Assembly: GCA_025812035.1 (NCBI GenBank)
Contig: GCA_025812035.1_4719.1
DNA length: 64,000 nucleotides
Direction: 5' to 3' (one strand)
DNA from: a phage
Position 1 is the stretch's first letter. Each line of letters begins with the position of its first letter. Positions 819 to 48,550 of this stretch are shown here, piece after piece. A program made the translations under genes and the position numbers. The notes beneath the pieces are model-generated. The model saw only the letters and a list, made by a program, of their open reading frames with translations, was not told the DNA's origin and did not search any database.

Positions 819-848
819 CCTCCTCCAACCCGTAAGGGAAGGAGGAGG
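819..848 (-). terminator. GNRA-loop hairpin, family copy 1 (CCTCCTCC-AACCC-GTAA-GGGAA-GGAGGAGG)
   Basis: Perfect 8-9 bp G/C stem with A.A internal mismatch and GTAA loop, just 3' of the minus-strand gene ending at 859; no strong U-tract. Confidence 0.6.
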
Positions 849-858
849 GTTATGGTGG

Positions 859-3522: not shown

Positions 3523-3554
3523 CCCTCTCCCAACCCGTAAGGGAAGGGAGAGGG
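3523..3554 (-). terminator. GNRA-loop hairpin, family copy 2 (CCCTCTCCC-AACCC-GTAA-GGGAA-GGGAGAGGG)
   Basis: Same architecture with compensatory changes in the outer stem; 3' of the gene ending at 3577. Confidence 0.6.
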
Positions 3555-3576
3555 AATATATCAGTTTATTAACCGA

Positions 3577-5500: not shown

Positions 5501-6399
5501 ACAGCCGCCTCTTCTTTTCGTTTGATATCATAACGAAGTTTCTTCAGTCGGTCTTCGTGATATTCGATCTGCTGTTGGATTTTCGGATCGTTACCTGCAT
5601 TCTGTTGCTTTTGCTTCAGCGACAAAATCCAATACTCCAACGCCTGGGCTTCTTCTTTGGCTGCCTGTAACGATGCTTCTTCACGCTCGCTGCGCCAGAT
5701 ACGGAAACGGTAAACAAGCGTGTCGGTTACATCACCATTAGCCCATGAACCCATACGCATCGGGTCGGTGTTACCTGCATTATACAGACCGTTACCAACG
5801 CCGTCTTCATCAGAAACCACAACATCCGGGATTTTATCCAACCCAGCCAGGATCTGTTGTTTCTGCCCACACAACACTTCGGTGGCAACGGCGAAACCGT
5901 ACATATTGGCGGTCAGGTAAGCAATCTCATTTTTGGTGAAGAATTCACCAAGTGCTTTATCACCACCTGGCATGCTTTCACAGATGACTGTTGCACGAAG
6001 CAACGTACGGGCATAGCTAACGTAGAAGCCCAGGGACTCAACAAGACGTACCAGAGCGGCTTCTTTGAAACTTAGACCGTCAGCAGCGACATCGATTTCC
6101 AGGTTTTTATTAACACGTTTAACGATTTCTGGAATCAGGTCAACCGCATTACGTAGTGCTAAGTGAACATTTTCGACCCAGTTTCCAGAACGAACGCGGG
6201 TTAGGCGTTGATGTAGATCCTTATCAGCAAGTTTCCATAACGCGCTTTCTCCCTTCTGGAGAAGCGAAGCGGATGTCTCGTAGTAAGGAATCGCGGTGTT
6301 GTTGATTTCGTCGCGGATTGATTCAAGTGCGTCAGCAACACCGGTGCGTTTAAAAAGCGGTTTCAGACCGCGAATGAATTCTTTAAAATCAATTGCCAT
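5497..6399 (-). CDS. Hypothetical protein, 300 aa
   Basis: Long ORF in the same operon-like run; Lys/Glu-rich coiled-coil-like C-terminus. Confidence 0.6.
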   Translation of the reverse strand: MAIDFKEFIRGLKPLFKRTGVADALESIRDEINNTAIPYYETSASLLQKGESALWKLADKDLHQRLTRVRSGNWVENVHLALRNAVDLIPEIVKRVNKNLEIDVAADGLSFKEAALVRLVESLGFYVSYARTLLRATVICESMPGGDKALGEFFTKNEIAYLTANMYGFAVATEVLCGQKQQILAGLDKIPDVVVSDEDGVGNGLYNAGNTDPMRMGSWANGDVTDTLVYRFRIWRSEREEASLQAAKEEAQALEYWILSLKQKQQNAGNDPKIQQQIEYHEDRLKKLRYDIKRKEEAAV

Positions 6400-7579: not shown

Positions 7580-8785
7580 ATGTCTAATTACTACGACCAA
7601 GCTATTCAAACCATTCAGGAGAATAATGCGTCGTTAACACCCGAAGCTGTGGAGGCAGCGGGTAACGCGGCGTTATTCACCGATTCGGATTGGGCAATAG
7701 CGCGGAAGAATATTCGTACCAGTGTCGGTCAAGGGACATACGAGGACAGTATCGCCAGACGGTATCGGAATGTGTCACCTATTCCGGGTAACAGCCCGAT
7801 TCCGATTAACCGCGATCATGCCGGTATTACCTTCTTCACACGACCTAATTTACATCTTACCGACGCGAACTTAAAACGAGATCGACGTTTGTGGTCGTTA
7901 CGCACGGATAACCCTAACAGCATTCAGGCTGTTGTCCGTGACTACTTGGACCCTGTGGGTGCCAGAAAGCGAAACCATCGAGGACGTGCCATCGTCGATG
8001 AGCGCAATCCATTCATAAGTATACTGACGGATAACCTGACGGATATCAGTGGTTTCAACGACATGGAAATGCAGGTCTATCAGGGTAAACCAGGATTACG
8101 CCAAGAAACCGTTGTGATGGCCGACGGTTCGGTGGATATGTTCCAGCCATATAACCTGAACGCGACGTTCAAGAACATCATGGGTAACCCCATCATGTTC
8201 CTTCATTATATTTGGTTAATTTACATCGCAGGTGTGCATAACGGTGAACTGACACCAAGCCCTCAGGCCATCGTTGATAATGAAATGGATTACTGGACAA
8301 GATGCTATCGCATCATCCTGGATCCGACCGGGATGTATGTTCGTTATATCTTCGCACCGACCGCGATGTTTCCTGTTGGGCTACCGATTGGTAATATGGC
8401 TAACTACAGCGTTGACAAACCCTTCACGCAAGATAACGAACGTATCACTATTCCATATCAAGCGGTTGGCAACAACGCGTTCGATGAGATTCTGAAGGAT
8501 GAATTCAATCGACTTGTCCTGATGTTCTATTACGGTGAGAACGATACCCGTACGTTCCTTGAAGATGAGGAGCTGGTACCTATCTCACCCTACGAGCGTC
8601 GAATCATGTCTTATCGTGTTGATATGTATCCGTTCATTCATCCGTTAACCTCAGAGCTTCTCTGGTTCGTACCCGCTGATGATTACAACGAATTCTATCT
8701 GGACCTTGAACCGTCAGCGTTACCACCGGATACGTTCAGTCGCGATCTTGTCCGTACCACCATTCCGCAAAATTACGAGGGATAA
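7580..8785 (+). CDS. Hypothetical protein, ~401 aa
   Basis: ORF track 7547..8785 begins at TTG; ATG at 7580 (MSNYYDQ) follows AAAGGAAAG. Divergent from the 6439..7545 gene with only ~35 nt between starts. Confidence 0.6.
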   Translation: MSNYYDQAIQTIQENNASLTPEAVEAAGNAALFTDSDWAIARKNIRTSVGQGTYEDSIARRYRNVSPIPGNSPIPINRDHAGITFFTRPNLHLTDANLKRDRRLWSLRTDNPNSIQAVVRDYLDPVGARKRNHRGRAIVDERNPFISILTDNLTDISGFNDMEMQVYQGKPGLRQETVVMADGSVDMFQPYNLNATFKNIMGNPIMFLHYIWLIYIAGVHNGELTPSPQAIVDNEMDYWTRCYRIILDPTGMYVRYIFAPTAMFPVGLPIGNMANYSVDKPFTQDNERITIPYQAVGNNAFDEILKDEFNRLVLMFYYGENDTRTFLEDEELVPISPYERRIMSYRVDMYPFIHPLTSELLWFVPADDYNEFYLDLEPSALPPDTFSRDLVRTTIPQNYEG

Positions 8786-8788
8786 TAA

Positions 8789-11782
8789 ATGAGCGTAACC
8801 AACAAAGATCTTGCTGAACAGCTCAATCGCTACATGCTTTCACCTATTGAAATGCAGGCTGTTGCAAGCGATATGATCCGTTTGGCTTCTGACGGCGAGT
8901 TAACCTTGGTTGATCCCAGCTGTCCGTTTGTCTATCTGCTGGAGGTTGCAACGGCAACGGCGGCGAACCAGAATGCACGGGATGAATCACGTGTTCGCGA
9001 ACTGTATCCGAAACTTGCAACGAACTGGAGCCAGCTCTATCGTTGGATGTATGACGAGTCGTACGTCGGTCGTTTCGCGATGCCGGGTAAAACAGAAATC
9101 ATTTATTCGTTAGGGTACCAGGAAATCCTTGATCGCGCTGTAGAAATTCCAAACACCGCTGCCTCCGACGATTTAAGTCGTTCCTACAGCCGTAAGTTAG
9201 TGATACCGCGTACAACGGCGTTTACGGTAGCCGGAATGGATTTCGGATTGCATTACCCTATCGAAATCCAAGTGCAAGCGCACGATCAGATACGTGCTGT
9301 TTATAACACCGACAACATCAGCCCGTTACAAACCTTGGAGAGTAACCAGGTCGAATACGGGGTTGTTCGCGTAAAAGCGGGTAAGGTGTTGGTTATGCGT
9401 ATCCCGCTGTTCCAGTTTAAAACGCTGGTAAAAGATGTGCCGTTTAACAGCATTCACGGGATGAACAGCAGCATTACCTTCGAAGATCAGTTTTACCATT
9501 GCCGTGCGTATATGTCGTCGGATAACGATACCTGGACGGAGATAGCGACAACACACAGCCAGCAGATCTATGATCCGTTAACACCAACCATCGCGTTACA
9601 AGTAGAAGGGAATAAACTTAACTGGCGTGTTCCTGAAATTTATTTGTCTCAAGGTACGATGGATAAAAGCACCATTCGACTTGAGGTGTTGACGACGAAA
9701 GGGAAAATCAGCGTCGACCCATCCGATTACGATGTGACCGATTGGAAAGATAACTACATCGATTTGTCGCCAAAAGCTGAACAGAAATACAGTGCGCCGT
9801 TAAGTGCGTTCAACATTAAAGGGATTTATAGTGAAGGAGCGTTGTCGGGTGGACGATCCGCGTTAACGTTCGAGGAACAACGTGAGCGTGTTATGGCGGG
9901 CGTGAACAAAACCAAGATACCTATCACGGGTACGCAGGTAGAGCTGGTGCTTCAAGATGCGGGTTACGGGATGGTGACCACCATCGACAACGTAACCAAT
10001 CGTTCGTTCCTGGCAACCCGAGATTTACCGCAACTGAGCGATAGCGTGCCTCAAGCCGGTTCGTTGATGGGGTCTTTCTATACGTCAGCTGCAGCATTGG
10101 TGAAAAGTAAGTTTGTCGCTGATAACGGCGATCGCATTACGATTAAACCGGATTGTTTGTATCGCGATAGTAACGGAAGCATTACGTTGTTACCGGACGA
10201 TGAAATCGATCGAATTAACGCGAGTGATTCGGACACTAAGCTGAATGCGGTAAACAATGCCATGCTTTGCTATAGTCCGTTTCATTACGTATTAGACACA
10301 TCTGGTGATTTTGACATCCATGCTTATTACTTGGATAATCCTAAAATCGGCACGCAGGCTTTCCTCGACGCGAACGAGACAATCCCGTTAACCGCCATGG
10401 TAACCGGATACCGTCTGGATCGTATTGCTGAAGGATATCGCCTGAGCCTCATTGTAGAGGGTAACGACGCATGGAAAGCGCTCGACGATAAAAACGTGCA
10501 CGTACAGCTGGGGTTCAATCCGCGGGGTGAGGGTGACTACGCTACGATGTTAGCGTCACCTACAACCGATGAGCAGGGTCGTCGTTTGTTCACCTTCGAC
10601 ATCACCACGAACTATGATTTTACGCGTATCCTGTCTGACGATTCCACGGCGTATGAACCGTATATCGCGTTGACTTCGTTCTCGATGTATGAATCAACGC
10701 CACGGGATTATTGGGCATCGCTGCAGCAGTATCTGGAAATCTTCCACGTGGTGACGGATTATGCGCCAGAAGACGTCGATGGTATTTTACACAGTGCTTC
10801 CGATAATTACCTGGTTAAGAAACTCACGCTTCAAAACGGGTATTGTTTCTACCGTGAACGTCTTACCGCAACCTTTGGTTATGATCTGGATGGTCTCTGG
10901 ATGCGTTCTCGTACGGTGGCCTCGGAGATTACGTATAAGCGTTATACCGAGAACATTCCGTGGTTATACGAAGAAGATATTCCAGCAACCGATGAGACCG
11001 GTTCTGTTATCATTGAACAAGGTGATGATGGTACATTATCGGTTAAATATCTACACCGTAAGGGAGATCCGAAATTAAACAGTGATGGAAGCCAAGCCTA
11101 TCGCTACCTGAAAGGCGACATCATGAAAGATAATTACGGTAATCCGATCCCTGTCGATGAGCGTGAGGTTCTGCGTAACCTGGACATGTTCTTTATTGAT
11201 GCGTCGTATCTGTTAGCGAACGATACAGACGTGATTGCGTATCGTAATGCGATCCCTACGCAACTTATCGAGTGGATCCAGAATGATATCAGCACGTTCA
11301 GGAATTTCTGTTATGAAGAAACAGAGATTTCGCTGTATCCTAAACAATCGCTGGGGTATGTGGATGTTATTGTGGAAAACGGATTGGAAACAACGCTTCC
11401 TGCTGCCCTATCGTTCAACGTGACGCTTTACTTACCGGCTAAGCAATACGCTGACTTGGATTTACGTCAAGTCCTTCAAGCGATGGTGTCGAGAGTCATT
11501 AATGAATGCTTAACATCCCGTACAGTGGCTAAAGCAGAAATGATCGCGATGATTCGTGAGGAAGGAGGTGACGATATCCTGAACGTTGAAATCGATGATT
11601 TTGGACCAGGTAAGAACCTCAGTGTTTATACGGCGAAGAACGATGGCGTTCGTTGTGCTGTGAAGAAAGAGCTTTATGTGAAAGCGGATGGTATCTTGTC
11701 CGTACGCGAAGCGATTGATGTGAGTTTTGTGAAACACGCACAAAGCAACAGCACCGCGTTAGCGCAAGGTCTTCGGATCTAA
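8789..11782 (+). CDS. Hypothetical large protein, 997 aa (possible virion protein)
   Basis: Long uninterrupted ORF starting 4 nt after the upstream stop; no recognisable motif. Confidence 0.65.
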   Translation: MSVTNKDLAEQLNRYMLSPIEMQAVASDMIRLASDGELTLVDPSCPFVYLLEVATATAANQNARDESRVRELYPKLATNWSQLYRWMYDESYVGRFAMPGKTEIIYSLGYQEILDRAVEIPNTAASDDLSRSYSRKLVIPRTTAFTVAGMDFGLHYPIEIQVQAHDQIRAVYNTDNISPLQTLESNQVEYGVVRVKAGKVLVMRIPLFQFKTLVKDVPFNSIHGMNSSITFEDQFYHCRAYMSSDNDTWTEIATTHSQQIYDPLTPTIALQVEGNKLNWRVPEIYLSQGTMDKSTIRLEVLTTKGKISVDPSDYDVTDWKDNYIDLSPKAEQKYSAPLSAFNIKGIYSEGALSGGRSALTFEEQRERVMAGVNKTKIPITGTQVELVLQDAGYGMVTTIDNVTNRSFLATRDLPQLSDSVPQAGSLMGSFYTSAAALVKSKFVADNGDRITIKPDCLYRDSNGSITLLPDDEIDRINASDSDTKLNAVNNAMLCYSPFHYVLDTSGDFDIHAYYLDNPKIGTQAFLDANETIPLTAMVTGYRLDRIAEGYRLSLIVEGNDAWKALDDKNVHVQLGFNPRGEGDYATMLASPTTDEQGRRLFTFDITTNYDFTRILSDDSTAYEPYIALTSFSMYESTPRDYWASLQQYLEIFHVVTDYAPEDVDGILHSASDNYLVKKLTLQNGYCFYRERLTATFGYDLDGLWMRSRTVASEITYKRYTENIPWLYEEDIPATDETGSVIIEQGDDGTLSVKYLHRKGDPKLNSDGSQAYRYLKGDIMKDNYGNPIPVDEREVLRNLDMFFIDASYLLANDTDVIAYRNAIPTQLIEWIQNDISTFRNFCYEETEISLYPKQSLGYVDVIVENGLETTLPAALSFNVTLYLPAKQYADLDLRQVLQAMVSRVINECLTSRTVAKAEMIAMIREEGGDDILNVEIDDFGPGKNLSVYTAKNDGVRCAVKKELYVKADGILSVREAIDVSFVKHAQSNSTALAQGLRI

Positions 11783-11803: not shown

Positions 11804-11835
11804 CCCTCCTCCAACCCGTAAGGGAAGGAGGAGGG
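11804..11835. terminator. GNRA-loop hairpin, family copy 3, between convergent genes
   Basis: CCCTCCTCC-AACCC-GTAA-GGGAA-GGAGGAGGG between the plus gene ending 11782 and the minus gene ending 11845. Confidence 0.65.
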
Positions 11836-11844
11836 AATATGTTG

Positions 11845-20338: not shown

Positions 20339-22090
20339 ATGAGCGAACAAGAACGAAAACCTAAGAAGAAACTGCTCGGTATTCAATGTCGACACATCAG
20401 TTATAACGAAGCGAACGATGGCAGTAAGAACGATCTCATGATTGCAAAAGAGATCATGTTCTTTGATGATAATACGCAGGCAACGAACCTTCGATTCTTC
20501 GAGAATTACAAACGTCCATTTTGGGTGACGGTAGAGAGTAAACGTAAGAACAAATATAAAAAGGAAAGCGAGAAGCTCTCGCATGTACGTCGCTATGATG
20601 TCCGTCAAAGTGAACTGGTCGATAAAATCAGTTCGGTGCTTTATAAAAGACGTGCTGATGATAACACCCGCTTACAACAGCTCGCACGGAGTCCATACCT
20701 CTATGGAACGGACGTTAGCGCTAGCTGTTATTTAAAAACCCAATACAATACAAAATGGCCGGAATACGCCGATAAATTACCTGCCACCATCGCATGTTTC
20801 GATATCGAAACCGACGTTGTTCATGGGCACGGTAAGATCGTTTGTATGTCTATTACAATGGGCTACAATGCGATACTTTGCTATACCAAGGACTTCGTTG
20901 GTCATATTCCGAATGCGATCGAGAAAACCCACGAGAAGATTCGATATTACCTGGCCGAACGTCTGAACACCAAAGAGGATCCTCACGCGTTCGAAAAATA
21001 TCATTACGATGTTCGAATCGTAGAAAGCCCAGCACAAGCGGTCATCCAATGCATGCAGAAGGTTCACGAATGGCAGCCGGATTATCTCCTTGGCTGGAAT
21101 ATCGCGTTCGATATTCCACGTATGCTCCAGGCGCTGAACGAGGAAGGGTATCGTCCCGAGGATGTTTTCTCCGATCCTCGCGTACCCCCTAAGTATCGCA
21201 TTGCTCGCTGGGTACCACCGAAGACCGACAAGGTATCTGCTTCAGGTCGTAAAACCAACCTTACCCTTGAGCAGACCTGGCCGATGTTTTATACGATGGC
21301 TACATACCAGGTTATGGATGCGATGTGTGGTTATAAGTTCGTTCGTTTAGGAAGACCGGATGAAGGACGTTATTCACTCGATGCGGTGTTAGAGCGTAAT
21401 AAATGTCATACGAAACTAAAAGCGATTCCTGGTACAGAAGGGTTCACGGAGCTCGCCTGGCACGAAGAGATGCAAACGAACCATCAAATCGACTACGGCG
21501 TATATAACCTTTGGGATAACCAAGGTATTGAGGCATTGGACCAGAAAACAAAAGACTATTCGATGACCATCCCTATTCGTTTAGCGGCGTCGGATTTGAA
21601 AGATTTCAGTTCCAACCCTAAACGTATCTGTGATAAACTTTTCTTCGTTTATCTTAACCGTGGGGAAGTCATGGGATGCACCGCCGACGACATGACCCAG
21701 GAAGAAGATAAATGGGTTATCTCACGAGCAGGACATATCGTCACATTACCATGCGATCTCATGGCAGACAACGGCATACATCTCTTCTGGGATATGCCGA
21801 ACTTGAGAAGTTATATCCGTCTATTCGTTGCAGACCTTGACATAAGCAGTTCATACCCGAATGGGCAGATCCTGCTCAATCTATCCAGGGCGTGTGTTTT
21901 TCGTGAGCTCTCACGTATTGAGGGCGTCTCTGACTATCAATTCAGGAAGCTAGGTATCAACTTTATTACCGGAGGTAAAACGAACGCGGTAGACTTCTGT
22001 AGAATCGTTTATAAAGCACCATCGATGTTCGAACTCTTAGAACATTTCGATGCGACGCGTCCGAAAGAGGAAGCGCGAACCATCGAATGA
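20339..22090 (+). CDS. Family-B DNA polymerase-like protein: 3'-5' exonuclease domain plus motif-A-like segment, 583 aa (possible N-terminal part of a split polymerase)
   Basis: Exo I CFDIETD, Exo II GWNIAFDIPRM, Exo III YGVYNLWDNQ with family-B-like spacing; DLDISSSYPN resembles motif A (DxxSLYPS); no motif B/C before the stop; terminator hairpin follows. Confidence 0.5.
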   Translation: MSEQERKPKKKLLGIQCRHISYNEANDGSKNDLMIAKEIMFFDDNTQATNLRFFENYKRPFWVTVESKRKNKYKKESEKLSHVRRYDVRQSELVDKISSVLYKRRADDNTRLQQLARSPYLYGTDVSASCYLKTQYNTKWPEYADKLPATIACFDIETDVVHGHGKIVCMSITMGYNAILCYTKDFVGHIPNAIEKTHEKIRYYLAERLNTKEDPHAFEKYHYDVRIVESPAQAVIQCMQKVHEWQPDYLLGWNIAFDIPRMLQALNEEGYRPEDVFSDPRVPPKYRIARWVPPKTDKVSASGRKTNLTLEQTWPMFYTMATYQVMDAMCGYKFVRLGRPDEGRYSLDAVLERNKCHTKLKAIPGTEGFTELAWHEEMQTNHQIDYGVYNLWDNQGIEALDQKTKDYSMTIPIRLAASDLKDFSSNPKRICDKLFFVYLNRGEVMGCTADDMTQEEDKWVISRAGHIVTLPCDLMADNGIHLFWDMPNLRSYIRLFVADLDISSSYPNGQILLNLSRACVFRELSRIEGVSDYQFRKLGINFITGGKTNAVDFCRIVYKAPSMFELLEHFDATRPKEEARTIE

Positions 22091-22138
22091 TTAAAGTATG
22101 TTGATCCTCGTTTAACAAAAAAGAAAACGCATGCGAAG

Positions 22139-22180
22139 CCCCTCCCCCTGGCGGAAGCCGGAGGGAGGGGTGGAGGTTTT
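22139..22180. terminator. Hairpin plus T-run between convergent polymerase-like gene and paralog array
   Basis: C-rich/G-rich stem (CCCCTCCCCCTGGC / GCCGGAGGGAGGGG) followed by TGGAGGTTTT on the plus strand. Confidence 0.6.
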
Positions 22181-22188
22181 ATGTGTTT

Positions 22189-22638
22189 TTAATTATTATT
22201 GGTGGGGTTATCGTCCGGTTTATATTCAATGCCGTAGGCGACGTAACGGTCTGTTGTATGGACGACAAGCGAGATAGGGAAATCATAATGCATAGTTTTG
22301 TCTCGAACGAGCTGAGTAAAGAGATCCATATAACGTATTAAGTCTTCACTGGTGTAATCAGAAGGGAAGAAGACATCGATGGTTATTGAATCTTCATAGA
22401 GGCGTACGACCAACTTATCCAGAAGGTCGGCATATTGGTTAGCCGGGGTGACGTCCATCTGACAGATGCCACGATCTCCTTCGTCTCGCGATACCCACAT
22501 CGTGGTATCCTGTAATGAGGTTTCAAGGATCTCGAAAATACATTTTGCTGTAAGTCTTAGTTTATTTGTTACGTCATGGTTAGGTGAATAATGGTCACGG
22601 ATGTTTTTCACTGCGTCTTTGATAGAGAAAGTCATCAT
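22189..22638 (-). CDS. Small paralog family protein 1 of 8, 149 aa (function unknown)
   Basis: Shares N-terminal helix motif (AKCIFEILETSLQDTTMW) and acidic C-terminal tail (YGIEYKPDDNPT) with seven neighbours. Confidence 0.6.
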   Translation of the reverse strand: MMTFSIKDAVKNIRDHYSPNHDVTNKLRLTAKCIFEILETSLQDTTMWVSRDEGDRGICQMDVTPANQYADLLDKLVVRLYEDSITIDVFFPSDYTSEDLIRYMDLFTQLVRDKTMHYDFPISLVVHTTDRYVAYGIEYKPDDNPTNNN

Positions 22639-22648
22639 TGATGCTCCT

Positions 22649-23158
22649 TCAAATGAAATTAATACGTGCGGCTGTCGAAACGAGTTCGCTTGTAAAGCAA
22701 TGCTTACCGTCGGGATTTACCGTGTGGGTAAGTTTACAAACCTTAGCGGCAGGGTTAGCGCCGATGACAAGGACGGTCGTCATATCGAACAGTTCCACAC
22801 GTTGAAGAAATGCCGTATCGGCTACCTTCTGTAAACCGGTTGCTTCAAAATCGATGTGGTCGTTAAGAGGCACCAATTGGATTTCAATACGTTCTTTGAA
22901 AAGTTTAAACGTTACTGAAAACCGATGAGGTTCGGCATTAAGCCATAAAGGTCCGCGTTGGAAGTGCTGATATGCTTCATTCGCGGTGTTCTCGAAAACC
23001 CAGCAGTCGTGGACAAGAGAAGCCTCTTGTAACGATGATTCCAGGTAGTCAAATACCTTGTTTATCGTTTTCTCAAGCATAGGTGCTAGTGAACCAGGGT
23101 ATCCAGCAAATGCTGCTTCGGCAATCGATTTTATTGATACGATGTTGTTCTGACTCAT
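22649..23158 (-). CDS. Small paralog family protein 2 of 8, ~169 aa
   Basis: ORF track 22649..23185; start moved to MSQNN after AAGGAA that overlaps the upstream stop; N-terminal motif INKVFDYLESSLQEASLVHDCW. Confidence 0.55.
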   Translation of the reverse strand: MSQNNIVSIKSIAEAAFAGYPGSLAPMLEKTINKVFDYLESSLQEASLVHDCWVFENTANEAYQHFQRGPLWLNAEPHRFSVTFKLFKERIEIQLVPLNDHIDFEATGLQKVADTAFLQRVELFDMTTVLVIGANPAAKVCKLTHTVNPDGKHCFTSELVSTAARINFI

Positions 23159-23162
23159 TTCT

Positions 23163-23615
23163 TTATTCCTTGTTGGCTTCTTCAATGTACTTGGTGTCGT
23201 AAGACAAATGCTGAATTAATTTTCTAGGCTCGATGAAAATACGACACGTGATAAACACATCAGGGTTGTATTGTTCCACGCAACGTCCGAAGGCTTGTTT
23301 TGCGGCGTGACGCATCAACACTAATTCCCGATCGTTCATCTCATCATCAAATTCGATATGTATCGTGATTTTATCGGGAAATAAATAGATAGAGTAATCG
23401 CTACCAATACCGTCGTCGTCAAAGCGATAATCGTTGTGGTAATGGTGAAGTTTACCTTCGTGTACCGTCTGGTACCACCCGACGATACTATCAAGACCCA
23501 TACCCAGGCGTCCGAATGCCTGATTAATAATATCCTCGACGACGGATGCGGGGGTGGGACCATTGAACAATCTATCCAGACGTTTTTTCATCGATTTGTC
23601 TGTTTTCACATTCAT
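23163..23615 (-). CDS. Small paralog family protein 3 of 8, ~150 aa
   Basis: ORF track 23163..23666 would translate the upstream hairpin; start moved to MNVKTDKS. Motif VEDIINQAFGRLGMGLDSIVGW. Confidence 0.55.
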   Translation of the reverse strand: MNVKTDKSMKKRLDRLFNGPTPASVVEDIINQAFGRLGMGLDSIVGWYQTVHEGKLHHYHNDYRFDDDGIGSDYSIYLFPDKITIHIEFDDEMNDRELVLMRHAAKQAFGRCVEQYNPDVFITCRIFIEPRKLIQHLSYDTKYIEEANKE

Positions 23616-23645
23616 CGATTCTGTTCCTGTTATAGTCAGTATAAA

Positions 23646-23681
23646 CCCTCCTTCCCTAGCCATCAAGGCCGGGGAAGGGGG
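23646..23681 (-). terminator. C-rich/G-rich hairpin inside the paralog array
   Basis: CCCTCCTTCCC ... GGGGAAGGGGG between genes ending 23694 and starting ~23615. Confidence 0.45.
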
Positions 23682-23693
23682 TATGTGCGTTAT

Positions 23694-24101
23694 TTATGCT
23701 TCGTTGTCAACTAAAGGTGCTGTATGTTTCTTACCGTCGATGTGCCAAATGAGACACGCTGGATAGAGGTTAACATCTAGAGAGCAGGGGAGGCCATATT
23801 TCTCTTCCAGTTCGTAAAGACGTTCAGCGAGCTGCTTCCGTCCATCATCATCGTTTTGCAATGCATGATGGCCGAATCGTTGCTGGTCGTTCTTTACATA
23901 CGCCTCGAAAAGTATATGTTGTTGAAAAACGATGATTCTTACACCTTCAAGTATGTCGGTGTCGAGCATGCGAGAAAAACTCATACATGCCTCTGATGCC
24001 GAAGACGAGTTTTCCTCTTTAACAATATCAATCATCGCGGTGATACGTGGCTGATCGATGTTGTCGTTAACCGCTTTAACGATGGAATCTACAATACTCA
24101 T
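23694..24101 (-). CDS. Small paralog family protein 4 of 8, 135 aa
   Basis: ORF; N-terminal VKAVNDNIDQPRITAMIDIV; similar fold pattern to neighbours by eye (weakest member). Confidence 0.5.
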   Translation of the reverse strand: MSIVDSIVKAVNDNIDQPRITAMIDIVKEENSSSASEACMSFSRMLDTDILEGVRIIVFQQHILFEAYVKNDQQRFGHHALQNDDDGRKQLAERLYELEEKYGLPCSLDVNLYPACLIWHIDGKKHTAPLVDNEA

Positions 24102-24138
24102 TTTTTATCCTTAATGTTACCGGTTTAGAAATATTATT

Positions 24139-24903
24139 TTATTTACTGTTATCCTTATCGACAGTTGTTACCCATGATGGGAAAGCCGGATGGAAACAGA
24201 GCGTGAACGTAACCTTCGCATCGTATTTAAGCGCGTGGTTCACTAACCGGGTATCGAACGTTTTCCTTAGCCCGTCATCATCATTATCGATGATAGTCAT
24301 ATCCCTTAATATCCCAAGCACGTTAACGCCATCGGGTGTCTGGGTTACGACGACTCGTCGTAACGGCCCATGTGTATAGTCACGTACGTATCCTTTCTTC
24401 GGGTCCGATACTCTGTTTAACGCATCGCGATTTTCGATGAGTTCATCAGCAATACGATAGATGTGTTCCCTTGCTTTATCGTGATCGTATTCTGCTAATA
24501 GTTCCTTTGTATCGAACGATATCGCGTTACTATCATTCGATTCAGAAGGGAAATAAAGAACTAAACGAACAGGGTATTCGTATTGATCCGTTCTCGTTTC
24601 GAAAACACCGGCTAAACATGGTTTATATGCCTTTGCGTCGACGTTGTCTAAACACGGATGCAATAATGCGTGAATAACGACACCATCGTCAGTTAAACCG
24701 AATTCCAGAAATTGTGTTTCATCGGTATCTGTTACCGTTTTCTGAAGATACGCTTTACCGTTAACGATATCGGTATCCCATATATCGTCGTTTAATGATT
24801 CTTCAAACTTATCGAATATAAGGTTTACGGTATCGATGAGTCCATCGATACGCCACTGCTGATTGCTCTCAATTAATTGCTGAACCTTATCTTTGATAGA
24901 CAT
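24139..24903 (-). CDS. Small paralog family protein 5 of 8, 254 aa (extended C-terminus)
   Basis: AAGGAG SD overlapping the upstream stop; N-terminal NLIFDKFEESLNDDIWDTD; central YEYPVRLVLYFPSE matches the family pattern. Confidence 0.6.
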   Translation of the reverse strand: MSIKDKVQQLIESNQQWRIDGLIDTVNLIFDKFEESLNDDIWDTDIVNGKAYLQKTVTDTDETQFLEFGLTDDGVVIHALLHPCLDNVDAKAYKPCLAGVFETRTDQYEYPVRLVLYFPSESNDSNAISFDTKELLAEYDHDKAREHIYRIADELIENRDALNRVSDPKKGYVRDYTHGPLRRVVVTQTPDGVNVLGILRDMTIIDNDDDGLRKTFDTRLVNHALKYDAKVTFTLCFHPAFPSWVTTVDKDNSK

Positions 24904-24905
24904 GA

Positions 24906-25364
24906 TTACTCCTTAGTTCCTTCTTCGTCAGGTGTATACGCCAATGTGAAGAATTCATAACCATCAACAAACTTGAATGTTACTGTAATAGGGAAATCGC
25001 ACGGCATGACGGATTTCATAAATGCATCATTAGCAACCTCAGATAACCGACGTATGACATCTCCCCTGCTGGCGTTGAATGGTAGTTTTATGTCGATAAG
25101 GATGCGGTGCTTGTAAACATAGAAAACAACGGTACTGTCAAGATAAATACCAGAGAGCTGCGTTGTTGGGATGCGTTCCACAATGGAAAAATACGTCCCA
25201 TCAGTATCGCTATTTCCCACCGACCATTTATCGGATTTGCGTAGATTTTCTTTGAGGGATTCGACACTTCGAGTGATGACCTCAACGATAGGCGTGACGT
25301 AAGCGTCTTTATGCGTGTCGAAAAGTTCGTTAACAGTAGACTTGAATGAATATTCTGTTGTCAT
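24906..25364 (-). CDS. Small paralog family protein 6 of 8, 152 aa
   Basis: Start overlaps the upstream stop; VEVITRSVESLKENLRKSDKW ... CDFPITVTFKFVDGYEFFTLAYTPDEEG. Confidence 0.6.
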   Translation of the reverse strand: MTTEYSFKSTVNELFDTHKDAYVTPIVEVITRSVESLKENLRKSDKWSVGNSDTDGTYFSIVERIPTTQLSGIYLDSTVVFYVYKHRILIDIKLPFNASRGDVIRRLSEVANDAFMKSVMPCDFPITVTFKFVDGYEFFTLAYTPDEEGTKE

Positions 25365-25879
25365 TATTCTACCTCTTTCTTCATCTTCATCGGAACAGAG
25401 AGTGTTGTTACCTCTGTTCCATTATCCGGCTCATATTCCAATGTAACGAGATCGTAACCATCCGATAATTCATAATCGATCGCTAGGGGGAACGAGATAC
25501 CGTGCGACTTTATGCATTTACCAAATGTCTCATTGGCCGTATACATTAGAAGTTGCTTTGCGGCAAGCCCGTTTACGCTGAAAGGTAATCGTGCTGTCGC
25601 AGCGATACGATTATTGTAAACTCTGATATCGGTGATATCTACAATCGTAGCATTGCTATGTTGTAATGTTGGAACGGATAGGCTGTAGAAGTAAGGTTTA
25701 GATCCGGAATCGGGTTCATTAAATAATTCCCAACATCCGTCCTCCTGCAATCTTACCTCGAGTATTTCAAAGCTTTTAATTATCGATTCTACCAGCTGCT
25801 CACCGTAAGAATCCCATGTCGTCATTTTAGCACCTTCGATACCTTTTAACCGACACGTGCCCCACTTAACAAGGGACAC
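25364..25879 (-). CDS. Small paralog family protein 7 of 8, 171 aa
   Basis: ESIIKSFEILEVRLQEDGCW ... ISFPLAIDYELSDGYDLVTLEYEPDNG. Confidence 0.6.
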   Translation of the reverse strand: MSLVKWGTCRLKGIEGAKMTTWDSYGEQLVESIIKSFEILEVRLQEDGCWELFNEPDSGSKPYFYSLSVPTLQHSNATIVDITDIRVYNNRIAATARLPFSVNGLAAKQLLMYTANETFGKCIKSHGISFPLAIDYELSDGYDLVTLEYEPDNGTEVTTLSVPMKMKKEVE

Positions 25880-25894
25880 GAAGTCGTTGATTAA

Positions 25895-26395
25895 TTACTC
25901 TTCTGTGTTTTCATTGTCAGGATCGTAGTGGAATTCGAACAGCCCTGAACCGTCATGCCCATTGATTGTTAGTATAACGGGCATATCGAATCCTCGGACG
26001 CGCGAATGAAAACACTGTGCTAATTTTAGTTTGGCGTATGCCGCTATTTCATTGATGGCAATACACGACTCACCTGTTATACTCAGTATAACGTCGATAC
26101 TAACAATGTTGTTGTGCAACGCAAAACGCCAACGATCGATATGATTATTATCTTTAGCGGTTGTCTCGTTTACGAGATAGACTTTATCGTCAGCCGACAA
26201 AGCGGGGCTCCAGCAACGTTCGTTTATTAAATTCGCCTGGAGTTTTAGTATCGTCTGATCAATAATATCCCAACACGTAACCAGCGTGGCGTCAGACACT
26301 GAATTGAGAAGGGCGAGCACTTTATCCTTTATTTTAAGTGCTTCCGCAGGACGCCCGCAAATACCATGCATTTCAACTTTCTTATTCATATTCAC
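25895..26395 (-). CDS. Small paralog family protein 8 of 8, 166 aa
   Basis: WDIIDQTILKLQANLINERCW ... FDMPVILTINGHDGSGLFEFHYDPDNEN. Confidence 0.6.
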   Translation of the reverse strand: MNMNKKVEMHGICGRPAEALKIKDKVLALLNSVSDATLVTCWDIIDQTILKLQANLINERCWSPALSADDKVYLVNETTAKDNNHIDRWRFALHNNIVSIDVILSITGESCIAINEIAAYAKLKLAQCFHSRVRGFDMPVILTINGHDGSGLFEFHYDPDNENTEE

Positions 26396-26432
26396 CTCTT
26401 TTTTAATCTAAATGTTAGTTGGGATAGGGCGA

Positions 26433-27065
26433 TCACATGCTTTCTAACATATTGACGATCATGGAACCCATACCGAAACTCGGTCTCTCGCCGATGTACT
26501 CAGCAAGCTGACGATGAACGTCTTTTGGATTCCCTTCTTCACCGTCGGCATCGATGTAAACCGAAAAAGAAAATGAATCGGAATCCACGCTGATAACCAG
26601 ACGACGTTCATTGCGTTCCTTGAGTGTATCGACAATAGCTGCTTTCAGTACTGTGATCGCGTTCATCGCGTGCAAGATATCTCCATCAGGTCTCGCCAGA
26701 TCGATCTTTTCTTTCAGGTCGATATTGATGTTGGTTACAATTGGATTGAGATCGACTTTGACATAATCGTTAGGGGACACGCGAATAATTGCACGATCGA
26801 TATCTGAACCGTAAAAGTCGATACGTGGCTTTAACACTTCTTTGTTTGGATCCATGTTTTCATCCATACCCGCCTGTAGAAAGCGTTCTACGTTATCCAG
26901 TTCACGATAAACTGACGCTTCGATTTCTTTCAGATAGTTGGCTGCGGTTTCATGTTCTTTGCGTAGCTCGTCTTTAAGGAGCTGTACGGTGACTTCACTG
27001 GAACGAATGCTGTTCGCGAATTGTGTAATTGACATATCGAATTCCTTAAGTTCTCTTGAGTTCAA
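26433..27065 (-). CDS. Hypothetical protein, 210 aa
   Basis: ORF followed on the minus strand by a hairpin plus T-run terminator (~27084-27112). Confidence 0.55.
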   Translation of the reverse strand: MNSRELKEFDMSITQFANSIRSSEVTVQLLKDELRKEHETAANYLKEIEASVYRELDNVERFLQAGMDENMDPNKEVLKPRIDFYGSDIDRAIIRVSPNDYVKVDLNPIVTNINIDLKEKIDLARPDGDILHAMNAITVLKAAIVDTLKERNERRLVISVDSDSFSFSVYIDADGEEGNPKDVHRQLAEYIGERPSFGMGSMIVNMLESM

Positions 27066-27083
27066 TTAATGATGAAATGCTGT

Positions 27084-27112
27084 AAAAAAAAAATGGTGGG
27101 GCGAACCCCACC
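27084..27112 (-). terminator. Rho-independent terminator (hairpin plus U-tract)
   Basis: Minus-strand GGTGGGG-TTCG-CCCCACC followed by a 10-T run; 3' of the gene ending 27137. Confidence 0.75.
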
Positions 27113-27136
27113 GAAACGTCAGACACACGCAGAAAA

Positions 27137-27562
27137 TCAATTCAGTGATGCATACAACGCATAACGACTGTAGATCTCAACCGCTGGCCCGTTATGCGTT
27201 AACAGACCATCTCGGTTGTAATACTGGAAAAAGGAATAGCGTTTGTCGAAGTGATAAACGAAAGCAATGTCTTTACCGTTAAGACCCGTGATGCGTGGTC
27301 TGTTTTTATCTAGCAATGCTTTGACTTTTAACAGTGTTGCCGCACGTGCTTTAACATTAGGGATTAATCCATCACAGTCGATATAAACCGTGTAACCTGT
27401 TTCAGATGTTGCGACGGTTGTATTGCGATTGACGCGGAAGATTTTTGTTTTGTATGTATTATCTTCAAGGATTGGGTTTTGTTTTTCGTATTTTCGTTTA
27501 TGCAGAAATCCTACAACGGTAATATAGTTAGCGGTAATATGTCCGGTTATAGCCTGTAACAT
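27137..27562 (-). CDS. Hypothetical protein, 141 aa, preceded by the conserved ~95-bp leader element
   Basis: ATG with AAGAGGA SD inside the repeated leader (27563-27660). Confidence 0.55.
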   Translation of the reverse strand: MLQAITGHITANYITVVGFLHKRKYEKQNPILEDNTYKTKIFRVNRNTTVATSETGYTVYIDCDGLIPNVKARAATLLKVKALLDKNRPRITGLNGKDIAFVYHFDKRYSFFQYYNRDGLLTHNGPAVEIYSRYALYASLN

Positions 27563-27660
27563 TTTGACATCCTCTTATATTGGATTGATTACAGTTATCT
27601 TAAATAGGCGATAAGATATCTTGCTCTTATCACCTTAGTAATATAGCCGTGAAATAAATT
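27563..27660 (-). promoter_or_regulatory. Conserved ~95-bp leader/promoter element, copy 1
   Basis: Minus-strand order: box TTTCACGGCTATATTA (contains -10-like TATATT), a 5'-UTR hairpin, then AATCAATCCAATATAAGAGGATGTCAA-ATG; the same blocks recur at 51772-51862. Confidence 0.55.
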
Positions 27661-27689
27661 GTGTTAACAAGAAATAAAACAGCATAGAA

Positions 27690-27729
27690 CCCTCCTCCCC
27701 CATCCTTCAAGAGGACGGTGGGAAGAGGG
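27690..27729 (-). terminator. C-rich/G-rich imperfect hairpin
   Basis: CCCTCCTCCCCC ... GGTGGGAAGAGGG, 3' of the gene ending 27737. Confidence 0.4.
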
Positions 27730-27736
27730 AGAGAGA

Positions 27737-28138
27737 TTAAATGTCGTGGACGGCAACGCTGTTTAACCAGCAATACAGCTTAACGCGACACGGATACCGC
27801 TTCATTGCAGCAACCATTTCATCGCGTAAACGCTGGTAGATTTCATCCTGGTGTTCACGTTCAATGGGGTAATCAGCCCAACATTCGATCATGACGTCAC
27901 CATTAGTCAGAATCGTCGTACGCATCCTGTCCTGGACACGACGATCTTTCCCAGCATTAGGGAAATACATCCCTTCAGTACGAATAAGGTCGCCGCAGGG
28001 CATGACTAACCATTCGTTCGTTTTGCCGGTATTCTTATAATCCATTACAGCTTGCATTGCGGTGTCAACGCTAAAAGAAACATAATTCCAAACGGGTGTC
28101 CAACGATAGATTGCAGGTTGTTCAAGTGTTTCGTTCAT
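27737..28138 (-). CDS. Hypothetical protein, 133 aa
   Basis: ORF flanked by C-rich/G-rich hairpins. Confidence 0.5.
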   Translation of the reverse strand: MNETLEQPAIYRWTPVWNYVSFSVDTAMQAVMDYKNTGKTNEWLVMPCGDLIRTEGMYFPNAGKDRRVQDRMRTTILTNGDVMIECWADYPIEREHQDEIYQRLRDEMVAAMKRYPCRVKLYCWLNSVAVHDI

Positions 28139-28193
28139 GAGGCGCTTTTCCTATTTTTTATTTTCTGCACAGGATAAATTCAACGGCATAAAG

Positions 28194-28225
28194 CCCTTCC
28201 CTGCCCTTATATGGGGCGGGAAGAG
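28194..28225 (-). terminator. C-rich/G-rich hairpin
   Basis: CCCTTCCCTGCCC-TTATAT-GGGGCGGGAAG, 3' of the gene ending 28354. Confidence 0.4.
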
Positions 28226-28353: not shown

Positions 28354-28992
28354 TTATGCAAAGCGACGCATGTAACCTGCCAGGTAGTTACGTGTATCGA
28401 AGTAGGCAATTTCAGGAATTGCGATATTAAGGTCGATAGCACGGATTTCAACCTGGCGACGGCTTTCATCATAGATCGCATCCATCAGACGCAGTACTGT
28501 CAGGAAAGCCATGCGGGTATGGTAGTCCAGCGGCATGTTATCGATGCCACGATACAGGTAACGATTTGCGTTGAATGCCCCTTCGCTGTTATCTTTCCAG
28601 ATCTTCAGAATATCAGCAAAGGCGGTGCGGAAAACCTCAGGATTATCCACATCCAGTAACGCACGGAAAGCAGACATTAAAGATCGCTGATGACGGATCA
28701 AGGACTGCGGCGTTTGCGGCATGGTCGGACCCATTTCTTCCGCATATTTCTGGAACGGGGCAACCAGGGTTGCGGCGCGAGAAGCAACGATAGAAATAGC
28801 AGGCGATTCATTCACCGCTGGTTTCGCAGGCTTTTCTTCAACTGCGGTTTCCTTCTTCTCAACAACGACCGTTTTCGGTTGTGCTACAACGTTGTTGGTC
28901 GGAGCAGCAGCCGCACCATTTTCCACGGCGGTCTCTACTGCTGTAATCTTTTCGTCCATTTGTGCGGAACGTTGGTCTTTATTCTTGCTCAT
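28354..28992 (-). CDS. Hypothetical protein, 212 aa, low-complexity Ala/Val/Lys/Glu-rich N-terminus
   Basis: ORF; no recognisable motif. Confidence 0.55.
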   Translation of the reverse strand: MSKNKDQRSAQMDEKITAVETAVENGAAAAPTNNVVAQPKTVVVEKKETAVEEKPAKPAVNESPAISIVASRAATLVAPFQKYAEEMGPTMPQTPQSLIRHQRSLMSAFRALLDVDNPEVFRTAFADILKIWKDNSEGAFNANRYLYRGIDNMPLDYHTRMAFLTVLRLMDAIYDESRRQVEIRAIDLNIAIPEIAYFDTRNYLAGYMRRFA

Positions 28993-33510: not shown

Positions 33511-33840
33511 ATGAAGCTGAACATCGAAATGGGTATTGCGTACGATACCATGTTCGGTTTGTATGACCGCGTTAACGACTGGACACCGTTGAAATGGGTT
33601 GCCCAGCATCCTGCTGAAGACCCATGGGACAGATTAGGGATTAAACCCTTAATCGAGGATTACGTACGATTCGGTATTAAAGAGTTCATGTCGCTCGACG
33701 CATTTTTAAAAGCACCGTATCCTTATGCGCAAACGGTACTCAAGATCGCACAAGACGAGCTGCGGAAACGCAGTGCTGTATTGGACGACGATGAGGACAA
33801 GTTACGACGAGAAGAAGAACGTTTACGAAACGGAAGATAA
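33511..33840 (+). CDS. Hypothetical protein, 109 aa (possibly the downstream part of a frameshifted product)
   Basis: ORF; its frame is open upstream to ~33310, overlapping the 3' end of the 548-aa gene. Confidence 0.45.
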   Translation: MKLNIEMGIAYDTMFGLYDRVNDWTPLKWVAQHPAEDPWDRLGIKPLIEDYVRFGIKEFMSLDAFLKAPYPYAQTVLKIAQDELRKRSAVLDDDEDKLRREEERLRNGR

Positions 33841-33841
33841 A

Positions 33842-34351
33842 ATGGCGAGATTTACCAGTTTGATTGGGTTGGACATTTGGGAGACACCTGCTGACGTTAG
33901 GGTTATTCCCGTTAACACTGTCGGTGTGATGGGACGTGGTCTTGCGAAGCAGGCAGCCGAGCGTGTGCCCGGTCTTCTTGAAGCGTACCGTAAGCACTGC
34001 TCTGATGGATTTAAGGTGGGCGAAGTCGTATCGTATCAGCACGGCGAGAACGATCAGCTCACCTACGTACTGTTTCCATCGAAATCGGATTGGCGTGAAA
34101 AAACACGACGCGAGTATATCGTTAGCGGCTTACTGGCGTTAAAGGCGTGGTTATTGGAGCTTCAGTTCGAAAGAGATGGCTTCTCATACCGGAGTCCGGC
34201 TGAACCGTTGATCGTAGCGATTCCTCCTGTTGGTTCTGGTTGCGGTAATATCGGTTACGGGCAATCCGAAACAATCCAGCCTCAATGGGTACGCGCACAA
34301 ATCAAACAGTATCTTGCCACCGTACCGAACGTTCATTTCTACTTGTTCTAA
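33842..34351 (+). CDS. Macro-domain-like protein (ADP-ribose binding/processing fold), ~169 aa
   Basis: ORF track 33725..34351; start at MARFTSL after GGAAG and the upstream stop. VIPVNTVGVMGRGLAKQAAERVPG and IAIPPVGSGCGNIGYG resemble the two conserved macro-domain loops. Confidence 0.5.
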   Translation: MARFTSLIGLDIWETPADVRVIPVNTVGVMGRGLAKQAAERVPGLLEAYRKHCSDGFKVGEVVSYQHGENDQLTYVLFPSKSDWREKTRREYIVSGLLALKAWLLELQFERDGFSYRSPAEPLIVAIPPVGSGCGNIGYGQSETIQPQWVRAQIKQYLATVPNVHFYLF

Positions 34352-34367
34352 CGCAAAGGTAACATAA

Positions 34368-34399
34368 CCCTCCTCCAACCCGTAAGGGAAGGAGGAGGG
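34368..34399. terminator. GNRA-loop hairpin, family copy 4, between convergent genes
   Basis: Identical core to copy 3, between the plus macro-domain gene (ends 34351) and the minus gene ending 34417. Confidence 0.65.
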
Positions 34400-34416
34400 A
34401 ATATGCTGTTATGTTA

Positions 34417-38793: not shown

Positions 38794-39496
38794 GATATTG
38801 TTTACCTCCAACAAACGACGTTAACCAATTACCTGAAACAAGTTGCGATGCCCAGCCAGGCACTGCCCTACCGTTCTGGCTCATCACGTTACCTGCCCAT
38901 CCCGGAAAACCCGGCCGGAAAATATATACTTGAATATGTGTTAAAGCGTTATCATTACCACCGCCAACAGCAACGTTACGACTCCCAGATGACGGGAAAT
39001 ATTCTTTTAAGAACAGAGGATCGGTTGCTAATAAAGATGCGGGCCAAGGGTTCGCGGATGCATCAACATCGAATTCGGTCCATCGCCATTTACGTCCCGT
39101 GTCGAACCATGTCGATGTACCGCCTCCACGCACTGCAAGATTGCGTGCGTCGCGGGCATTGTAAATTGATTCGATGTTACGCCACCCACCTTTTGCGGCG
39201 TTTGCCGCATAGCAAATCGCATTACCACCATTCTTCTTTTCGTAAACAGTTCGTTTGATATGAACACGATCGATGAACGCTTCACCGTATTTGTTGACGA
39301 GCGTTTGTGCGATATCACGAAGATCGTGCATGTGAAAAGCGATGTCTTCGTTATGGAACCATGTTGTCGGGTTCCAGACGGTACCGTTTGGTTCGGCACA
39401 CATCGATCGGATATTGTTGCGTTGATTAACCGCGATAAAACCCATTGTATACCTCGTTCCTATTCTCAAAAAGGAAATTTCATACGATGACGCCAT
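38780..39496 (-). CDS. Hypothetical protein, ~238 aa, conserved-C-terminus pair member B
   Basis: ORF track 38780..39532 begins inside the hairpin; ATG (MASSYEISF) follows AAGGAGG that forms the hairpin 3' arm. Confidence 0.55.
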   Translation of the reverse strand: MASSYEISFLRIGTRYTMGFIAVNQRNNIRSMCAEPNGTVWNPTTWFHNEDIAFHMHDLRDIAQTLVNKYGEAFIDRVHIKRTVYEKKNGGNAICYAANAAKGGWRNIESIYNARDARNLAVRGGGTSTWFDTGRKWRWTEFDVDASANPWPASLLATDPLFLKEYFPSSGSRNVAVGGGNDNALTHIQVYIFRPGFPGWAGNVMSQNGRAVPGWASQLVSGNWLTSFVGGKQYLTSI

Positions 39497-39500
39497 AGCA

Positions 39501-39530
39501 GCTCCTCCTTCCCTTACGGGTTGGAGGAGC
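39501..39530 (-). terminator. GNRA-loop hairpin, family copy 5, inverted orientation; 3' arm carries the SD of the next gene
   Basis: Plus strand GCTCCTCC-TTCCC-TTAC-GGGTT-GGAGGAGC is the reverse complement of the other copies; 3' of the lipoprotein gene; minus-strand AAGGAGG lies 7 nt before the ATG at ~39496. Confidence 0.6.
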
Positions 39531-48525: not shown

Positions 48526-48550
48526 CCCTTCCCGCGTAAGGCAGGAAGGG
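48526..48550 (-). terminator. C-rich/G-rich hairpin containing GTAAGG
   Basis: CCCTTCC-CGCGTAAGGCA-GGAAGGG, 3' of the endolysin gene ending 48565. Confidence 0.5.

Follow-up and report, generated by a model that had tools for sequence, protein, structure and literature searches.

The window analyzed here is a 64,000-nucleotide stretch of phage DNA (NCBI GenBank assembly GCA_025812035.1, contig GCA_025812035.1_4719.1) that carries, between positions 22,189 and 26,395, an array of eight consecutive small genes on the minus strand. The window belongs to a Goslar-like chimallivirus, a relative of a giant nucleus-forming E. coli phage. A megablast search with positions 22000-28200 gave a sole match, Escherichia phage vB_EcoM_Goslar (90.9% identity over 57% of the query), a virulent, nucleus-forming jumbo phage of 237 kb in the Chimalliviridae, so that the virulent-phage setting assumed in an earlier note on this DNA was correct. 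Metagenomic and bacterial-assembly contigs of 237 kb carry identical copies of the array, in keeping with a published account in which nearly all known Goslar-like phages derive from bacterial assemblies (10.1101/2024.12.31.630880). Minus-strand genes are numbered p1 to p12 in order of increasing position, and the starts of p2, p3, p7, p8 and p9 were shifted to the first ATG, where the Goslar annotation and independent gene calls also place them. The eight back-to-back open reading frames (ORFs) described in the earlier note were present, and the independent calls on public contigs gave, from p8 to p1, 164, 153, 152, 254, 135, 150, 169 and 149 amino acids (aa). Tight packing was found in part: p7 and p6 overlap by one base (ATGA) and the p6/p5, p3/p2 and p2/p1 junctions span 2-10 nucleotides (nt) with AGGAG-type sites around the upstream stop, whereas the p8/p7, p5/p4 and p4/p3 junctions span 37-78 nt. 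All family members are acidic (isoelectric point, pI, 4.5-5.6), with a grand average of hydropathy at or below 0 and no apparent hydrophobic membrane segments, as for soluble proteins.

On sequence comparison, seven of the eight genes certainly form one family, far beyond what chance would produce. Pairwise BLASTp E-values were 1e-15 for p6 with p7, 1e-8 for p6 with p8, 8e-7 for p1 with p6 and 2e-6 for p1 with p7, and residues 1-116 of p5 matched p8 at 2e-4. Profile-profile comparison of the ortholog alignments with hhalign linked p1, p2, p3, the N-terminal part of p5, p6, p7 and p8 at 74-98%. Identities between paralogs are only 14-35%, a level at which the shared motif might have been a chance resemblance or the ORFs unreal. 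Both ideas were refuted: the pairwise, leave-out hidden Markov model (HMM) and profile-profile scores are all significant, orthologs evolve under purifying selection with a ratio of nonsynonymous to synonymous divergence (omega) below 0.6, p6 and p5 gave confident structural models, and Goslar transcripts and peptides have been published. The alignments demonstrate, at the level of sequence, descent of the array genes from a common ancestor by tandem duplication. No DNA-level repeats were found between array copies, so the duplications are old.

The helix motif proposed in the earlier note, which ends in an invariant L...W, occurs in seven genes and is absent from p4, the Trp included, while the strict Y-x-P-D-[DEN] tail was found in only four of the eight. 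Across 15 diverged lineages the signature comprises an N-terminal S-[IF]-K (S6, K8), F34, L37, L41 and W47, alternating hydrophobic residues in strands 3-4, F115, a [hydrophobic]-D-[FM]-P turn, Y143 and a terminal Glu, with L41 and W47 invariant. Most of these conserved positions belong to the hydrophobic core, the exceptions being S6, K8, the D-[FM]-P turn, Y143 and the C-terminal Glu.

When richer alignments were used, the p4 family and the superfamily profile were colinear over strands 3-6 (p6 75-143 with p4 50-123, 89%, E-value 2.3e-6, 69 columns), and among the 472 six-frame ORFs of the window, all of which were scanned, p4 scored best of the non-members. This match and this rank indicate that p4 is probably a degenerate member. 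Its C-terminus resembles that of p5 (BLASTp 0.002), and its N-terminus resembles the p5 N-terminus. To speak of eight paralogs was therefore a slight overstatement, with seven clear members, one probable member (p4) and, in p5, a double-domain fusion. Among the neighbors, p9, p10, p11 and Goslar gp70 had no profile relation to the family (hhalign for p9 below 1%), and the same was true of X124 and X151, two extra genes of related phages. A third extra gene, X139, reached only 41% against p1 in hhalign, and the signal was lost against the superfamily profile. By eye only, p9 and p10 have a family-like helix and strand order and a Y-I-D-x-D-G ending.

AlphaFold2 models were made for p6 (with 31 orthologs and paralogs) and for p5. 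The p6 model (predicted local distance difference test, pLDDT, 85.9; predicted template modeling score, pTM, 0.78) runs from helix 7-16 and helix 19-41 through four antiparallel strands (48-93) and helix 101-119 to a hairpin (126-143). In the p5 model (pLDDT 77.7, pTM 0.68) the helix/sheet/helix/hairpin order appears twice, first as helix 3-37, four strands, helix 90-105 and two strands, and then as helix 141-164, three strands, helix 210-221 and two strands. The two halves of p5 aligned weakly in hhalign (E-value 1e-3, 33% identity over 48 columns), the C half being diverged. From the doubled fold order and the half-to-half similarity, it follows that p5 is a fused tandem double copy of the family domain. 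The order of one or more helices, a 3-4-strand meander, a helix and a hairpin is shared by p6, both halves of p5 and the model of Goslar gp73, to which the p6 model was matched by Foldseek at an E-value of 1.9e-11.

The fold is thus a confident one, and no strong structural match to the p6 or p5 model was found in PDB or BFVD. The best structural neighbors of both models were PA3611 (PDB 3npd) and the T3S4 substrate-switch domain of the type III secretion ruler PscP (PDB 5cuk), which share with them a long helix on an antiparallel sheet (84-86 residues aligned at 2.9-3.0 Å). An identity as a T3S4 domain was rejected, as neither a clear superposition nor a sequence-family match was obtained. 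A weak match to a PDB sequence had suggested a cGAS/nucleotidyltransferase fold, which was rejected as well; the conserved G[GS], the acidic catalytic residues and the fold were not found.

Database searches agreed with the earlier note that the array has no recognizable function. Pfam, PHROGs and NCBIfam gave nothing above noise for the members and their neighbors, a PDB sequence search gave nothing credible for the family, and none of the eight array proteins matched a Pfam entry at E-values up to 1, PF12699 and PF25613 (DUF7941) included. No catalytic or known family signature was found in the proteins, and no similarity to characterized anti-defense inhibitors in sequence or structure. A word-indexed search of 5.8 billion clusters returned 163 proteins, and the 120 listed were all p2, p3, p5 or p6 orthologs on Goslar-like contigs. 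An exhaustive HMMER search of 1.84 billion representatives returned 22 matches, 19 of which were sequences of this family's subgroups, full-length or fragmentary. The other three, giant DUF11/DUF7507 and Sushi repeat proteins, were set aside as spurious because their scores sum over repeats. A tblastn search with p9 and p10 against 50,697 phage records found Goslar only, and no mention of Goslar gp70-75 was found in the literature. By these searches the family is confined to Goslar-like phages and absent from other chimalliviruses; it is previously undescribed, at a type of locus that is familiar among phages. The features of the locus are listed in Table 1.

Table 1. Genes and putative regulatory elements of the array and its surroundings (positions in the window).
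Feature	Position	Strand	Description
p1	22189..22638	-	149 aa; family member, accessory (5/11 genomes); alleles only 34-85% identical
p2	22649..23158	-	169 aa; family member, accessory (5/11 genomes); leave-out HMM 1e-5; hhalign 96% to p1
p3	23163..23615	-	150 aa; divergent member, always present; Goslar gp71; leave-out HMM 5e-5; hhalign 76% to p1 and p2
p4	23694..24101	-	135 aa; probable degenerate member, without L...W motif
p5	24139..24903	-	254 aa; double-domain member (full N-terminal family domain, then a diverged second copy), accessory (8/11 genomes)
p6	24906..25364	-	152 aa; central member, always present; Goslar gp72
p7	25364..25825	-	153 aa; family member, accessory (6/11 distinct genomes); hhalign 97.6%
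p8	25895..26389	-	164 aa; family member, in every genome examined; Goslar gp73
p9	26433..27035	-	200 aa; acidic, conserved early gene; Goslar gp74; family relation undetected
p10	27137..27562	-	141 aa; basic (pI 9.65), conserved first gene of early block; Goslar gp75; family relation undetected
p11	27737..28138	-	Goslar gp76; outside early block
p12	28354..28992	-	
Early (virion RNA polymerase type) promoter-like element TTTCACGGCTATATTACTAAGGTG	27631..27654	-	~75 nt upstream of p10 start codon
Leader and ribosome-binding cassette AATCAATCCAATATAAGAGGATGTCAAA	27563..27592	-	directly before p10 ATG; conserved in related loci
Second early motif copy TTTTCACGGCTATATTACCTAGGTGA	51838-51852, leader to ~51772	-	shares flanking bases with p10 site, and 27-nt cassette
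G+C-rich hairpin then T9 run, terminator-like	27087..27112	-	between p10 and p9; putative terminator in Goslar annotation
C-rich/G-rich hairpin CCCTTCCCC...GGGAAGGAG, terminator-like	23648..23679	-	between p4 and p3; recurring type
C-rich/G-rich hairpin then T-rich run, terminator-like block end	22140..22170	-	after p1

Published RNA sequencing places the Goslar orthologs among the early genes. At 30 min, Armbruster et al. compared the transcripts of Goslar under knockdown of ChmA, the shell protein, with those obtained without knockdown, and the genes found to be nucleus-independent match the early program (10.1101/2023.09.20.558163). In the knockdown, HOV27_gp070 to gp075 changed by a log2 fold change (log2FC) of +1.0 to +1.3 (Supplementary Table 2 of that report), gp075, the p10 ortholog, lying at +1.0 to +1.2, while the neighbors collapsed (gp069 ~-4.4, gp076 ~-5.2; 10.1101/2023.09.20.558163). 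These data cover Goslar orthologs, and p1, p2, p4, p5 and p7 are absent from Goslar. The Goslar orthologs are thus early, nucleus-independent transcripts in a sharply bounded block that consists of p10, p9, the array and gp70, and that begins in the RNA-seq data at the p10 promoter-like element. The early timing guessed in the earlier note was confirmed. Its extension of the early module to the flanking genes holds for p9 and p10 (gp74, gp75) and fails for p11 (gp76), with a log2FC of ~-5.

Three of the orthologs also appear in published virion mass spectrometry, at ~2.5-5.8 copies per virion for gp071, 0.4-0.8 for gp072 and 0.3-0.6 for gp073 (Table S4, 10.64898/2026.04.21.720040), with three peptides seen for gp71 and one for gp72. 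These traces, together with the clustering of tandem paralogs in a chimallivirus, recall the PF12699 inner-body cluster of phiKZ (gp92-97) and Goslar (gp53-58), and raise the idea that the array encodes proteins packaged in the virion and injected. The PF12699 cluster and the array are both tandem paralogs with a shared predicted fold and no known function in the same phage family. However, gp071-073 lie at the level of the contaminating non-virion RNA polymerase and helicase (10.64898/2026.04.21.720040), and their 0.3-6 copies compare with 50-2150 copies per virion reached by the packaged paralogs gp53-58. Transcripts of gp53-58 drop by 3-5 log2 units in the ChmA knockdown while those of gp70-75 rise, and the array proteins have no PF12699 or DUF7941 match. 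Virion cargo is accordingly very improbable; the trace peptides of gp71-73 indicate proteins that are made and not packaged. PF12699 proteins are thus nucleus-dependent, high-copy virion cargo, whereas the array is early, unpackaged and found in Goslar-like phages only. The DUF7941 paralogs (Goslar gp22/gp23 and eight others), to which the array has no Pfam match, are found across chimalliviruses, virion-associated and dispersed.

The start of the block is marked by an early promoter-like element. The site at 27631-27645 (-) matches exactly the phiKZ early consensus TATATTAC and the extension from the 201phi2-1 consensus TATATTACDWHDGTG (extended ...DWHDGTG), both given in Table 2 of PMC7058600. 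The motif TATATTACNNNNGTG, with 11 fixed bases, has exactly two sites in the window against ~0.03 expected, while TATATTAC alone is not enriched (3 found versus 2.1 expected), so only the extended motif is informative. A sigma-70 promoter scan of the window was at background level. The core TTTCACGRCTAYATTAC was seen upstream of p10 in nine of the 11 related loci with a located p10, and in the remaining two an insertion shifts the core to the edge of the stretch examined. In L011 (~7680-7790), L012, L013, L023 and L024, where L numbers designate related loci, short palindromic insertions (e.g. CATGATG...CATCATG) stand directly after the ATTACC of the early motif, and may be small mobile or regulatory hairpins in the leader. 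The last 27 nt before the p10 ATG are identical to the leader that follows the second promoter copy near 51.8 kb. That copy lies upstream of a gp105 homolog, at the front of a series of small minus-strand genes that are homologs of gp105 to gp99, which in the published Goslar RNA-seq are nucleus-independent transcripts as well.

Goslar transcription stays early-class across the terminator-like hairpin between p10 and p9. Hairpins of the form CCCTTCCC...GGGAAGGG, often followed by TTTATGC(Y)GTT, were observed at 28194-28225, 27692-27733, 23648-23679, 22140-22170, 48526-48550 and 3523-3552, all on the minus strand. They are terminator-like and stand at the ends of transcription units, on both sides of p11, in the p4/p3 gap and after p1. 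We take the TATG in the hairpin tail to recall the phiKZ late-promoter core.

Comparison across 11 distinct related genomes, whose flanks are 77-99% identical, showed that the array is variable in content. The number of clear family members ranges from 3 to 8 per array, with p8, p6 and p3 in all 11 genomes, p4 or p4b in ten and the other copies accessory (Table 1). The order is p8 p7 p6 p5 p4 p3 p2 p1 in the window, p8 p6 p3 gp70 in Goslar, p8 p6 p4b p3 gp70 in L012 and X124 p8 p6 p5 X139 p4 p3 p2 p1 gp70 in L017. The last of these has, inside the array, a 124-aa gene (X124) and a 139-aa gene (X139) at 9027-9401 and 11217-11636, both absent from the window. A 151-aa gene (X151), also absent from the window, is inserted upstream of the early promoter region in L012, L022, L023 and L024, where it separates the p11 ortholog from that of p10. 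In L023 the p8 ortholog (5575-5733) is 52 aa long as a result of an in-frame internal deletion that fuses the first 15 residues with the final two strands (same sequence as P0138), an example of decay and remodeling still under way inside the array.

The sequences of the array also diverge faster than their surroundings, as the earlier note had supposed in calling the family tandem and rapidly diverging. Relative to the window, the flanks (RNA polymerase beta, p12-p9) of five closer genomes have a nonsynonymous divergence (dN) of 0.01-0.05 and an omega of 0.02-0.37, and p10 is 94-96% identical in most relatives. The array genes have a dN of 0.03-0.50, 3-15 times that of the flanks, and an omega of 0.12-0.56. 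Synonymous divergence (dS) is inflated in some array genes; p6 has a dN of 0.13-0.16 and an omega of 0.25-0.56 at a flank-like dS of ~0.3. L011 and L013 have p6, p7 and p4b in common, while against the window their p5 is 63% versus 85% identical and their p3 73% versus 91%, a mixture that points to allele replacement by recombination. The comparisons show that tandem duplication was followed by the p5 fusion, the degeneration of p4, the internal deletion in a relative and cassette-like replacement of alleles between phages. We read the array as a lineage-specific expansion, within the nucleus-forming Goslar-like phages, of a single alpha/beta domain that is small, acidic and non-enzymatic.

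Variation of this kind in an otherwise uniform clade (all with weighted gene repertoire relatedness, wGRR, > 0.7; 10.1101/2024.12.31.630880), of which the array is one of the variable loci, could reflect modulation of a persistent or carrier-type infection, or superinfection exclusion, rather than lytic takeover. In addition, of the 60 Goslar-like genomes known, 59 were recovered in bacterial assemblies, as persistent virulent phages (10.1101/2024.12.31.630880). The array proteins, however, are acidic and soluble and show no sign of membrane segments, while many exclusion proteins are membrane-bound, and the early expression was measured in a normal lytic infection. We regard such a role as improbable.

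From their timing, their variability and their lack of enzymatic features, the earlier note's suggestion of host takeover or counter-defense can be given a more definite form. It is quite possible, while short of probable, that the array proteins are non-enzymatic early cytoplasmic binders of variable host factors, serving takeover or counter-defense. They would act as binding proteins in the cytoplasm of the host during the first minutes of infection, with the conserved hydrophobic core supporting surfaces that would be wholly different between paralogs and fast-changing between phages. Each copy would neutralize or redirect a different, variable host factor, and counter-defense would be aimed at the cytoplasmic systems that the phage nucleus cannot shield. 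The always-present p8, p6 and p3 might cover common targets, and the accessory copies might tune the phage to particular hosts.

Several points weigh against this proposal. Early expression discriminates poorly, because by 5 min some 70% of the Goslar genes (175 of 249) can already be detected. Omega taken over whole genes never reaches 1, which does not demonstrate diversifying selection, and the same values would result from relaxed constraint combined with recombination. The step to function is made by analogy to other early accessory genes of phages, and there is no structural resemblance to any solved anti-defense protein. The universal presence of three members fits a core phage function equally well as a common host target.

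The chief competitor is a role internal to the phage, in which the proteins would help to build or service the early vesicle and nascent nucleus (mRNA export, local translation, or as shell or import accessories) and would have no host targets. Expression from the vesicle stage and the presence of p8, p6 and p3 in 11/11 genomes agree with it, as does the retention of the S-[IF]-K motif and the D-[FM]-P turn across very diverged paralogs, which could be a shared docking site. Against it, the family is absent from other chimalliviruses by profile search, BFVD fold search and neighbor tblastn, though all of these phages share the vesicle and nucleus cycle, and 3 to 8 copies with alleles swapped between near-identical phages would be unusual for machinery. 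We consider a phage-internal role unlikely. A bolder form of the host-factor proposal would assign the shared S-[IF]-K helix and D-[FM]-P turn to docking on one common machine, while the variable bodies capture different cytoplasmic host effectors, making the array a repertoire of inhibitors or adaptors on one scaffold. Example targets would be abortive-infection toxins and RNA- or translation-targeting defenses that are not excluded by the phage nucleus. This version is quite unlikely; if true, it would describe a modular, 'antibody-like' counter-defense array that is swapped between co-circulating jumbo phages.

Virulent phages have hypervariable early clusters of accessory genes, among them the T-even early hyperplastic regions, the T5 pre-early and T7 class I genes, and the phiKZ early proteins such as Dip. 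Like these, the array is made of small, non-enzymatic, early, tightly packed genes, with an early promoter for a phage polymerase, and it is variable and clade-narrow. It differs from them in being mostly one paralogous family of one fold, not a mix of unrelated ORFans. The paralog arrays of immunity proteins beside polymorphic toxin loci offer another likeness, being rows of small, acidic, fast-diverging alpha/beta proteins with conservation only in the core and copy-specific partners.

Other observations were made in the window outside the array. The gene for the exonuclease part of a family-B DNA polymerase at 20339-22090 (+) is uninterrupted (583 aa), as it is in L015. In Goslar and L002 the same gene is split in two (L001 578-2074 and 3834-4088) after codon 499 by an insert of ~1.8 kb with the NUMOD1/HNH endonuclease gp69, and its last 84 codons lie downstream of the insert, unannotated. 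The difference resembles an intron or homing-element polymorphism. The cassette CTCCTCCAACCCGTAAGGGAAGGAGGAGGGAATATG recurs at 820-855 (+), 3525-3560 (+), 11806-11841 (+), 34370-34405 (+) and 39494-39529 (-); pairing is possible between its C-rich arm and the GGAGGAG Shine-Dalgarno sequence that immediately precedes a start codon. Its role may be that of a conserved leader, of a hairpin for translational control or of a promoter cassette. About 7 kb from the array, the gene at 33725-34351 (+) encodes a 208-aa protein with a Macro domain (Pfam PF01661, 24.6 bits versus a cutoff of 22). A DarG2-like anti-defense antitoxin was recently described for chimalliviruses (PMC13309987), and the Macro-domain protein may be this antitoxin.

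Nucleus-forming jumbo phages are shielded from DNA-targeting immunity, and little is known of how they withstand cytoplasmic defenses and gain control of the host within the first minutes. The positionally conserved early promoter and leader cassette are a resource for work on Goslar-like phages, and the tools for Goslar are in place (CRISPRi-ART knockdown, GFP localization and RNA-seq). Near-identical Goslar-like phages differ in few places; the array is one of these, and its three universal and five or more accessory copies make up a short list of candidate determinants of host range or counter-defense.

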